Part shown: in pieces, positions 45,501-48,500 of the stretch
Layout of the letters: every line of letters begins with the position of its first letter
How positions within the stretch are numbered: the first letter of the stretch is position 1
From: Escherichia coli
Lineage (GTDB): Bacteria; Pseudomonadota; Gammaproteobacteria; Enterobacterales; Enterobacteriaceae
DNA length: 64,000 nt
Assembly (NCBI RefSeq): GCF_045037415.1
Contig: NZ_CP173438.1
Direction: 5' to 3' (one strand)
Made by a program: the position numbers

Positions 45501-48500
45501 GCTTTAAACCTCGGGCTTGAATTTGGATTACTGCCAGTGCGTACAACATTGGCAAAATATCAGATTTACATAAAATATATGATTTTTAATCCAGTTTTGC
45601 AATATCTTGCTGTGAAAATATGGTCTTTTGTTTTGAACGTGTTTTCGTTAAAAGCAATAAAGCTTGGCTATCAAGCTGTAGAAAAATGTGCTTCATTGCA
45701 ACCCAGCGTTCAGTAAATGTCTCAGACCAGTTTTTTGATGTCACTCCCACCAGTGATGCCAGCTCCTGGTATTCATAGGTCTTACGCCCTGCCAGCTCGT
45801 TCTTCACATCCTGTGCCGCCAGCCAGATCAACTTCTTCAAACGTTCCAGTGTTTTACCTGCAATTTTCCTGGTACCCAACAGAGTCTTAAACTCGCTCCA
45901 TGCCCACTGCGTTATGGTGACCTGATGTTCCCAGCGAACACTTTCGCTGTAACTCCACAGCAACCACGCTTTCTGATGTTCTTCGAGAGACAGAACCGCG
46001 CGGCGCCATGACGAGGTTGAGAACTCAACCTGGCTGACCAGTGCAATGGATGAACCTTTTGCGTACAACTGCTTACCGGAAATCGGCGGATTATCCAGCG
46101 TAATCATCCTGCCAGTTACCTCATCCAGAATGCGCGGCTTCTTTCGTTTGTATGTACCAGTATCAAATTGTGCATGCTCCAGCCAGGCTTCAAGCTGTCC
46201 TTTCGTTGCTCCGCTCAAATCAGCGGTAGCCACAATGAGTTGCTCGCGGACATACTGTAAATATTGGGTATTCATGCGGCAGCTCCTTTCAGTGTTTTGG
46301 CGTAATTCTTCAGTATCCGGTAATCGGTCAAAACAGAACTAGGAAAACGATATAAGCGCAGGCGCACCCAGCGGCGGCGAAGACGTTCTGCCATATAAGA
46401 CTCAAACATCATTCATCTCCCAGTTCAGTGATAGTCAGCTCCAGCTTCCCACCTTTGGTAACGGGCATCTTCACAACGCGGTAATCAACGACCTGAGCAT
46501 CATCCAGCCAGAAACCTGCTTTGGTGAGTGCGTCAAAAGCGGCCTTTTGCAGATTATCAAGGTCACGGCGACGGCGATCCGGCATGTGGCACTCAATGCT
46601 GATTTTCACAGGAATAGCCAGGCCGATATCCAGCATTGCGTTTTTAATGATTCGGGCGACATTATCGCGGTATGCCTGCCCCTCTGCGCTGATATGCGTG
46701 CGTCCGCGATTATGGCGGTAATAGCGATTATTGCTCGGCGGCCAGGGTAGTGTGATGCAGTAAGTATTCACGCCTTAATTACCCCCTCTTTCAGCCAGAT
46801 AACCTGTGTTCTCGCCATACCTTCCAGCGCACATTCTTTTGCATATCCAGCGTCAACAAAATGCGTGCGACGGTCGATTTCGTCGTGGCAGGCAGAACAT
46901 GCAATGGTGGCAATCAGGTCTGGCGGTTTGATACCGGTACCGCACAATCCAGCCAGCCGGATATGTGCCAGTACTGACGTTTCAGGATTGCCATTACATA
47001 CGCCAGGGATTCTTACCTGGCATTCCCGACCACGCGCTGCTTTTCTCAAGTCAGCCATGATTCCTCCTTGCTGCCAGTCGCAACCATTTTTTATCAACCA
47101 GGCTGGCGGTATATCCGAGCAGTGTTGGTATTTCGGATGGTTTCAGCTCAGGCTTACGCTTACGACGATTTGGTACTCTGTAGATGTGTCCGTTCATGAC
47201 ACGAATAAGCGGTGTAGCCATTACGCCTCCTGCTTGTCGCGCAGCAGCTGGAACTCGCAGCTCTGCGGAATAGTCAGGTGGCAGCCAATATTCACCGCCC
47301 AGGCTTCAACCTTACACAGGAAGACATACATCTCTCCGGTATCGAGATCGGAGGTATGGCGTAACGACTGGATAGTAGTGATTTCGCCGGTTACGACATC
47401 AACCAGGTCCTTGGTTTCATAACCGAGGTATGTGTGTTTGAGAGCATCTTTTACCCATGCTGCGGTAGCGAACGATTTCCCCCTGCTGATGAGGTATTCA
47501 CTGATTTCGCTGTACCACATGTGGCTGAGTGCATTCTGGGAAAGACTGCGTTTCTCACGCCACGGTTTAAGCACCATGCGAAAGCATTTTCCGTTCTCCA
47601 GATAAGGCTGGATCTGCTGGCCGATAGCGATGAAGTTACCGCGATGCAGTTTGATGCCATCTTGTGGTAGGTTCACGCTTCACCTCCACAGAGGTCAGAC
47701 GCTAGATGCAAAAAAACGCAGGTGCATTTCTGCATCTGTGAAGGGAGAAGAGAGTTTGGATTGTGTGTGCGCATAAACGTCCCCGTTTAGCGCAGAAGTC
47801 ACCGGAGTTGTTCAGGCTCCGGTGATACAATTATGGCGAATTGATTATTCATAATCAAACAAGATAAGGTCTCAAACTTCATGCAAGCCAAGATTTATTT
47901 CTGACAGAATTATACAAAGAAGCTATTGGTCAGAATCTACTCGGACTGTAAAACATACGCATAACCTTAAGCTCTCACTTTAAGCATTGTTGAAATAATA
48001 GCCGTCAAGTACAACCTTAACCACGACTGGGATATTTCCCTGGCTACCACGAGTTGTACGGCTATTAAACTGCCGTTAAATTTAGTAAGAGAATTTCATC
48101 CGATAAGTCAAGGCATGTAAAACATGAAAATTAACAAGATATTATCATCTGCAACACTATTGTATGGTATGTCAATGGCCATGTCGGTCGGGAGTTGTGC
48201 AACACCTGTCCAGACTAATCTTCCTGGTTACACCCCGGGTGCAGATATCATTAGTGTTTCACCGACCAGAAACCAGGTCGATCTCATTGGTGATGTTGTT
48301 TATTCCCAGATAAAAGGAACTCGTTCTGTCAGACAGCTTCACATGTCAGTTCTTGTCCCGCGAACAAATGATTTAAAACCAGCCATTATTTATTATCCCG
48401 GCGGCGGATTCATGTCTTCTGAACATGACAAATTTATTGAAATGAGAATGGCTCTGGCAGAAGCTGGTTTTGTTGTGGCCGCTGTAGAATACAGAACAAT

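Follow-up and report, generated by a model that had tools for sequence, protein, structure and literature searches.

A cysteine-free gene in an Escherichia coli lambdoid prophage very probably encodes a phage 82-type late antiterminator

Antiterminators of the Q82 type have been under study since about 1980. They form one of three Q families that share no sequence similarity with one another, Q21 (PF06530), Q-lambda (PF03589) and Q82 (PF06323) (PMC9388147, PMC7171158). The phage 82 Q protein brings about antitermination in reconstituted in vitro systems, and this activity depends on the Q-binding element (QBE) and is stimulated by NusA (work including PMC4914094). The Q-lambda protein carries a zinc ribbon (residues 114-152), an arm that touches DNA and the zinc-binding domain of RNA polymerase (PMC9388147). 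Here we analyse a gene in a lambdoid prophage that lies within a 64,000-nucleotide stretch of E. coli DNA (NZ_CP173438.1; the whole stretch is referred to as the window). A first-pass annotation of the window had remarked on the lack of cysteines in this gene and proposed either a different Q family or a different kind of late regulator. The former alternative was right. Sequence comparison indicates that the gene very probably encodes the late-gene antiterminator Q of a phage-82-like E. coli lambdoid prophage and that its product, a Q82-family protein, is almost identical to the family prototype.

An open reading frame (ORF) with an ATG start occupies 45586..46275 on the minus strand, exactly where the first-pass annotation, leaving the strand unstated, had put a Cys-free gene of 229 amino acids (aa); the product has 0 Cys and 4 His. 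When the protein was compared with hidden Markov models of the three Q families, as had been suggested, the Q82 model was matched full-length (Pfam PF06323, Phage_antiter_Q; E = 2.6e-93, 312.2 bits against a cut-off of 25, residues 4-219 on model positions 1-216 of 220). The Q-lambda (PF03589) and Q21 (PF06530) models were not matched even at E <= 10, a threshold at which PF06323 was the only Pfam family found. The PHROGs match is phrog_304, "anti-termination protein Q-like" (E = 2.6e-107), and a gapless alignment with phage 82 Q (CAA63332.1) gives 223 identical residues out of 229 (97%). No NCBIfam model matched the protein and a PDB sequence search, Q21 entries included, returned no match, so the identification is based on Pfam and PHROGs and on aligning the protein directly with phage 82 Q. 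Far from founding a new family, the gene is the textbook Q82 prototype and already known; in RefSeq its product is called "bacteriophage antitermination protein Q".

Identity to the prophage protein is 99.6% for Q of Escherichia phage PhiR47_2 (listed host E. coli C), 86.9% for phage 434 Q (UMO75331.1, annotated "Q82-like"), 74% in PPompW-type phages, including those joined to Stx2a phages, 69% for Gifsy-1 Q (STM2617) and 60-65% in Klebsiella and Enterobacter phages. Distant relatives at about 28% identity are found in N15, PY54, phiKO2 and VP882. Q and its downstream region are present in 2,204 of the 5,426 complete E. coli genomes, with a query coverage of at least 80% in 782.

The first-pass annotation had argued from the absence of cysteines that the protein cannot have the lambda Q zinc finger, and this holds; the absence is real but a statistically weak oddity. 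In 17 neighbouring prophage proteins Cys makes up 1.4% of residues, which gives a probability of about 0.04 for 0 Cys in 229 aa; the figure is about 0.07 if the generic E. coli frequency, taken as 1.16%, is assumed. The 251-aa cI-like repressor of the same prophage is also Cys-free. Close Q homologues (at least 74% identity) contain 0-4 cysteines and distant family representatives 0-8. A search through 1.84 billion representatives gave 170 clusters at E <= 0.001, and a family alignment of 70 sequences was built from it. In this alignment the cysteines of distant Q82-family members are scattered and alternate with A, S, T, V, L or F, without any conserved CxxC pair. No relic of a zinc site is therefore visible, and we rejected the idea that distant members keep an ancestral zinc site that was lost in Q82. 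The scatter of unconserved cysteines also means that being Cys-free reflects drift within the Q82 subclade and does not point to a new mechanism; as a family trait, the lack of Cys carries no significance. The prophage protein has no zinc ribbon because the Q82 family never had one.

The region 3' of the Q gene fits every published coordinate feature of the phage 82 late promoter PR' (Table 1). In phage 82 the QBE sits between the -35 and -10 hexamers and PR' positions -31..+30 are sufficient (PMC4914094). The promoter has an extended -10, a -10-like element from +9, a discriminator-like GCC at +15-17 and an AT-rich segment at +18-25 with U at +25, and polymerase pauses at +25/+26 (PMC5001585, where start-site slippage at this promoter is also cited). 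Placing the prophage GCC (45553..45551, minus strand) at +15-17 makes A45567, exactly 7 nt past the -10 hexamer, the likely +1, and the remaining published features then all fit. The segment TGATATTTT of the putative pause element covers 45562..45554 on the minus strand. The published QBE interval maps to 45580..45598, Q stop codon included, and the exact QBE bases within it are putative. An alignment of eight Q82-family phages reveals conservation of the -35 (in seven of the eight), the spacer motif AAAA(C/G)T(G/A)GATT(A/G)AA, the -10, the AAAT start and CTGATATTTTGCC. The PR' elements are conserved where Q identity is 62-87% and less so in more distant relatives, and the PR' region of PhiR47_2 is 100% identical. 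A terminator follows PR' at the same place in the relatives, with a sequence that differs from phage to phage.

Published work on 82 Q, together with the 97% identity and the matching cis elements, suggests how the prophage protein would act. Initiation by RNA polymerase at PR', a promoter that overlaps the 3' end of Q, would be constitutive. Sigma70 would then rebind the -10-like element at +6..+14 and the polymerase would pause at +25/+26. Q, thought to be dimeric and bound at the spacer QBE, would be transferred with the help of NusA to the paused polymerase, at or near its beta-flap tip. The modified polymerase would read through the terminator about 50-85 nt downstream and through later ones, allowing the lysis, packaging, head and tail genes to be transcribed from the minus strand. 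From this we infer QBE-dependent, NusA-stimulated terminator read-through by the prophage Q.

In an AlphaFold model of Q computed from the family alignment, the mean predicted local distance difference test score is 86.8, and most of residues 81-220 score higher than 90. The N-terminal third is poorly ordered, and the C-terminal domain is helical. This domain ends in a helix-turn-helix at about residues 169-195, which is predicted to bind DNA. The model resembles AlpA and the Q-lambda body minus its zinc arm. The fold relationship is already published: apart from the zinc finger inserted in lambda Q, both lambda Q and 82 Q resemble AlpA in AlphaFold models (PMC9371919). Q82 is the sole Q family of the three without a matching sequence among solved structures, and its abundant natural variants could serve structural work.

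One rival reading is that the gene encodes a Q-lambda-family protein that has lost its zinc ribbon. This is very improbable, given the missing PF03589 match, a BLASTP E value of 3.8 against lambda Q, a profile comparison (hhalign) with lambda Q that yields a probability of 0.7% over 25 columns, and the lack of any visible zinc-site relic. Q82 and Q-lambda may have a very deep common origin, although the protein does not belong to the Q-lambda family. The other first-pass alternative, a different kind of late regulator, for example a transcription activator or a sigma-like factor that simply happens to be in the Q position, had its one support in reasoning from the missing cysteines, and is extremely improbable. 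The protein is 97% identical to a Q with reconstituted antitermination activity, and the layout downstream of the gene, a constitutive-looking promoter followed by a pause element and a terminator, is of the antitermination type and not that of an activator-dependent promoter. A third possibility concerns the state of the prophage and not the identity of the protein: the Q gene may be intact in a defective prophage and never act as a lysis switch in this host. An IS66-family element does break the region between P and the nin genes, and the 782 carriers among 5,426 genomes point to long-term residence. We nevertheless consider this unlikely, because the Q ORF, its ribosome-binding site, PR' and the terminators are intact and are 100% identical in other E. 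coli genomes and, for the PR' region, in phage PhiR47_2, and because repressor, O, P, lysis, terminase and tail genes are also present in the window.

Several points weigh against reading the locus as a working phage 82-type antitermination system. The protein differs from 82 Q by six substitutions (S70L, E204Q, R211K, A218T, T219I and N224D), none of which lies in the predicted helix-turn-helix. The IS66 insertion upstream (49152..51683) could affect expression of Q from PR. The PR' match was made to published coordinate descriptions rather than base by base to authentic 82 PR'; the phage 82 record X92588 ends at the Q stop codon. As to how Q82 blocks termination, the literature still considers both a closed nozzle and an open RNA shield.

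Two further features lie at or next to PR'. A lambda-CII-type box, TTGCAATATCTTGC, is present on the plus strand at 45597..45610, antisense to the 3' end of Q and overlapping the palindromic PR' -35 (TTGCAA); counting both strands, the window contains this motif only 12 times. In the phage 434 record, a CII site and the -35 of the CII-dependent promoter paQ are annotated at the equivalent place. We set aside the box as a paQ analogue, and its function is doubtful here because the prophage has a YdaS/YdaT-type immunity region rather than lambda CII. The PR' transcript ended by the first terminator (45482..45567, minus strand) would be an RNA of roughly 80 nt, made constitutively in lysogens, and would correspond to lambda 6S RNA. 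StxS and IsrK, which are analogous transcripts, function as small RNAs (PMC7547250, PMC4825925). It is quite unlikely that the CII box is a single site through which antisense control of Q is tied to late-promoter occupancy or, as a separate matter, that the PR' RNA is a regulatory small RNA.

The rightward operon of the prophage runs on the minus strand, and the Q position assigned in the first-pass annotation is borne out by the surrounding genes. Upstream is ybcN-ninE-ybcO-rusA-ylcG, and downstream are PR' and its terminator, then holin, lysozyme, Rz, bor and terminase. The Q ATG overlaps the stop codon of the directly preceding 46-aa gene ylcG (ATGA, 46275..46272, minus strand), a junction that is identical in the phage 82 record. 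No tRNA genes are present between Q and holin, in contrast to several relatives. The prophage as a whole runs from recT/yqaJ/gam through the S24 repressor, YdaS (Cro-like), YdaT, O, P, an inverse-autotransporter adhesin, the IS66 element and an esterase to the nin genes, Q and the lysis genes, followed by bor/iss, a TonB-like gene and terminase; large ORFs including a tail-fibre gene lie further downstream.

Table 1. Coordinates of the Q gene, its putative late promoter region and other prophage features in the window
Feature	Position	Strand	Basis or remark
Q gene	45586..46275	-	229 aa; Q82-family late-gene antiterminator (very probable); PF06323, PHROG 304, 97% identity to phage 82 Q
Ribosome-binding site of Q, AGGAG	46283..46287	-	7 nt 5' of ATG; read from sequence
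PR' -35 hexamer TTGCAA (-35..-30)	45597..45602	-	Promoter scan; within last Q codons
PR' spacer AACTGGATTAAAAATCA, 17 nt	45580..45596	-	Expected place of QBE; contains Q stop codon TAA
PR' -10 hexamer TATATT (-12..-7)	45574..45579	-	Promoter scan; conserved in relatives
Putative PR' start, A at 45567 (+1), first of AAA run	45565..45567	-	GCC set at +15-17
Putative sigma70-dependent pause element: TG (+6,+7), TATTTT (+9..+14), GCC (+15..+17)	45551..45562	-	Fits published layout
AT-rich +18..+25 AATGTTGT, with putative pause sites +25 (T, 45543) and +26	45542..45550	-	Published coordinates
First intrinsic terminator after PR'	45482..45518	-	12-bp stem +50..+76 (45518..45492), then TTCTGTTTCT; terminator scan, RNA fold
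Second intrinsic terminator	45380..45404	-	GCCAGC-loop-GCTGGC (hairpin 45404..45388), then TTTTTTAT; terminator scan, RNA fold
nin block	46272..47676	-	ybcN, ninE, ybcO, rusA, ylcG; RefSeq names
ybcN (NinB-like)	47221..47676	-	Pfam 23.7 bits, just below 23.8-bit cut-off
ninE	47051..47221	-	
ybcO	46768..47097	-	Pfam YbcO above cut-off
rusA	46409..46771	-	Pfam RusA above cut-off
ylcG	46272..46412	-	
First late genes under putative Q control	44038..45276	-	Holin, lysozyme, Rz
Holin	44959..45276	-	Pfam Phage_holin_3_3
Lysozyme	44496..44972	-	No Pfam match; RefSeq: glycoside hydrolase family 24
Rz	44038..44499	-	Pfam Phage_lysis
60-aa ORF embedded in Rz	44097..44279	-	Rz1 label by position only
bor homologue	43665..44006	+	iss (increased serum survival) in RefSeq
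Small protein with TonB C-terminal domain	42906..43286	-	
S24-peptidase repressor	58494..59249	+	Cys-free
YdaS (Cro-like)	58225..58455	-	
YdaT	57616..58155	-	In cII position

The IS66-family element is 2,532 bp long, with ORFs of 537, 116 and 141 aa and an 8-bp target duplication, and interrupts the esterase gene within its last codons. The insertion is absent from E. coli strain 4/1-1, which is otherwise 100% identical over window positions 41277..52952. The interrupted gene (48124..49155, plus strand) encodes an alpha/beta-hydrolase (BD-FAE / Abhydrolase_3) with a signal-peptide-like N-terminus and is moron-like in running opposite to the phage operon. PhiR47_2 has a 1,044-nt hypothetical gene in the same place and orientation, a likeness of size and position only. 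An inverse autotransporter of 1,302 aa (51744..55652, minus strand), encoded between P and the nin genes, combines IAT_beta with repeated Big_1/Invasin_D3 domains and is intimin/invasin-like; the RefSeq coding sequence in strain 4/1-1 is longer (4,266 nt), so the 5' end may differ here. The immunity region (57616..59249) is of the Rac/CP-933P type. The bor homologue and the gene with a TonB C-terminal domain form a region (42906..44006) between the lysis and packaging genes.

The Q gene marks the late-operon switch of a prophage that also carries the iss/bor serum-resistance gene and an inverse-autotransporter adhesin, and the value of the assignment is one of annotation. As a discovery it has little weight: this is a RefSeq-named prototype Q82-type antiterminator, carried by about a seventh of complete E. 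coli genomes.

Among the described systems, the Q21 family and Pseudomonas aeruginosa AlpA have no sequence similarity to the prophage Q. Q21 is independent of NusA and, like Q-lambda, forms a closed nozzle; the same has been questioned for Q82 because Q82 can load on complexes that carry long RNA. The Q-lambda family has a zinc-ribbon arm that the prophage Q lacks, there is no detectable sequence similarity between the two, and the Q-lambda pause lies at +16/17 compared with the +25/26 suggested by the sequence here. Gifsy-1 is nearer. Its Q is shorter at the C-terminus and its promoter region aligns poorly; judging by matching gene order and not by a shared identifier, STM2617 is probably the AntQ of PMC4825925. 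Phage 434 has the PR' -35, spacer, -10 and pause element in common with the prophage, whereas the downstream cargo and terminators of both phage 434 and Gifsy-1 differ from those of the prophage.

The closest counterpart is phage 82 itself (X92588; orf33, orf151, orf56, orf96, rus, orf45 and Q). Its Q protein (REGQ_BP82) likewise has 229 aa and no cysteines, and window positions 45586..47810 (minus strand) are 96% identical to it in DNA over the nin-Q block. The genes orf151, orf56, orf96, rus and orf45 are the equivalents of ybcN, ninE, ybcO, rusA and ylcG, respectively. Unlike phage 82 Q, the copy described here is a resident prophage gene in the E. coli chromosome.
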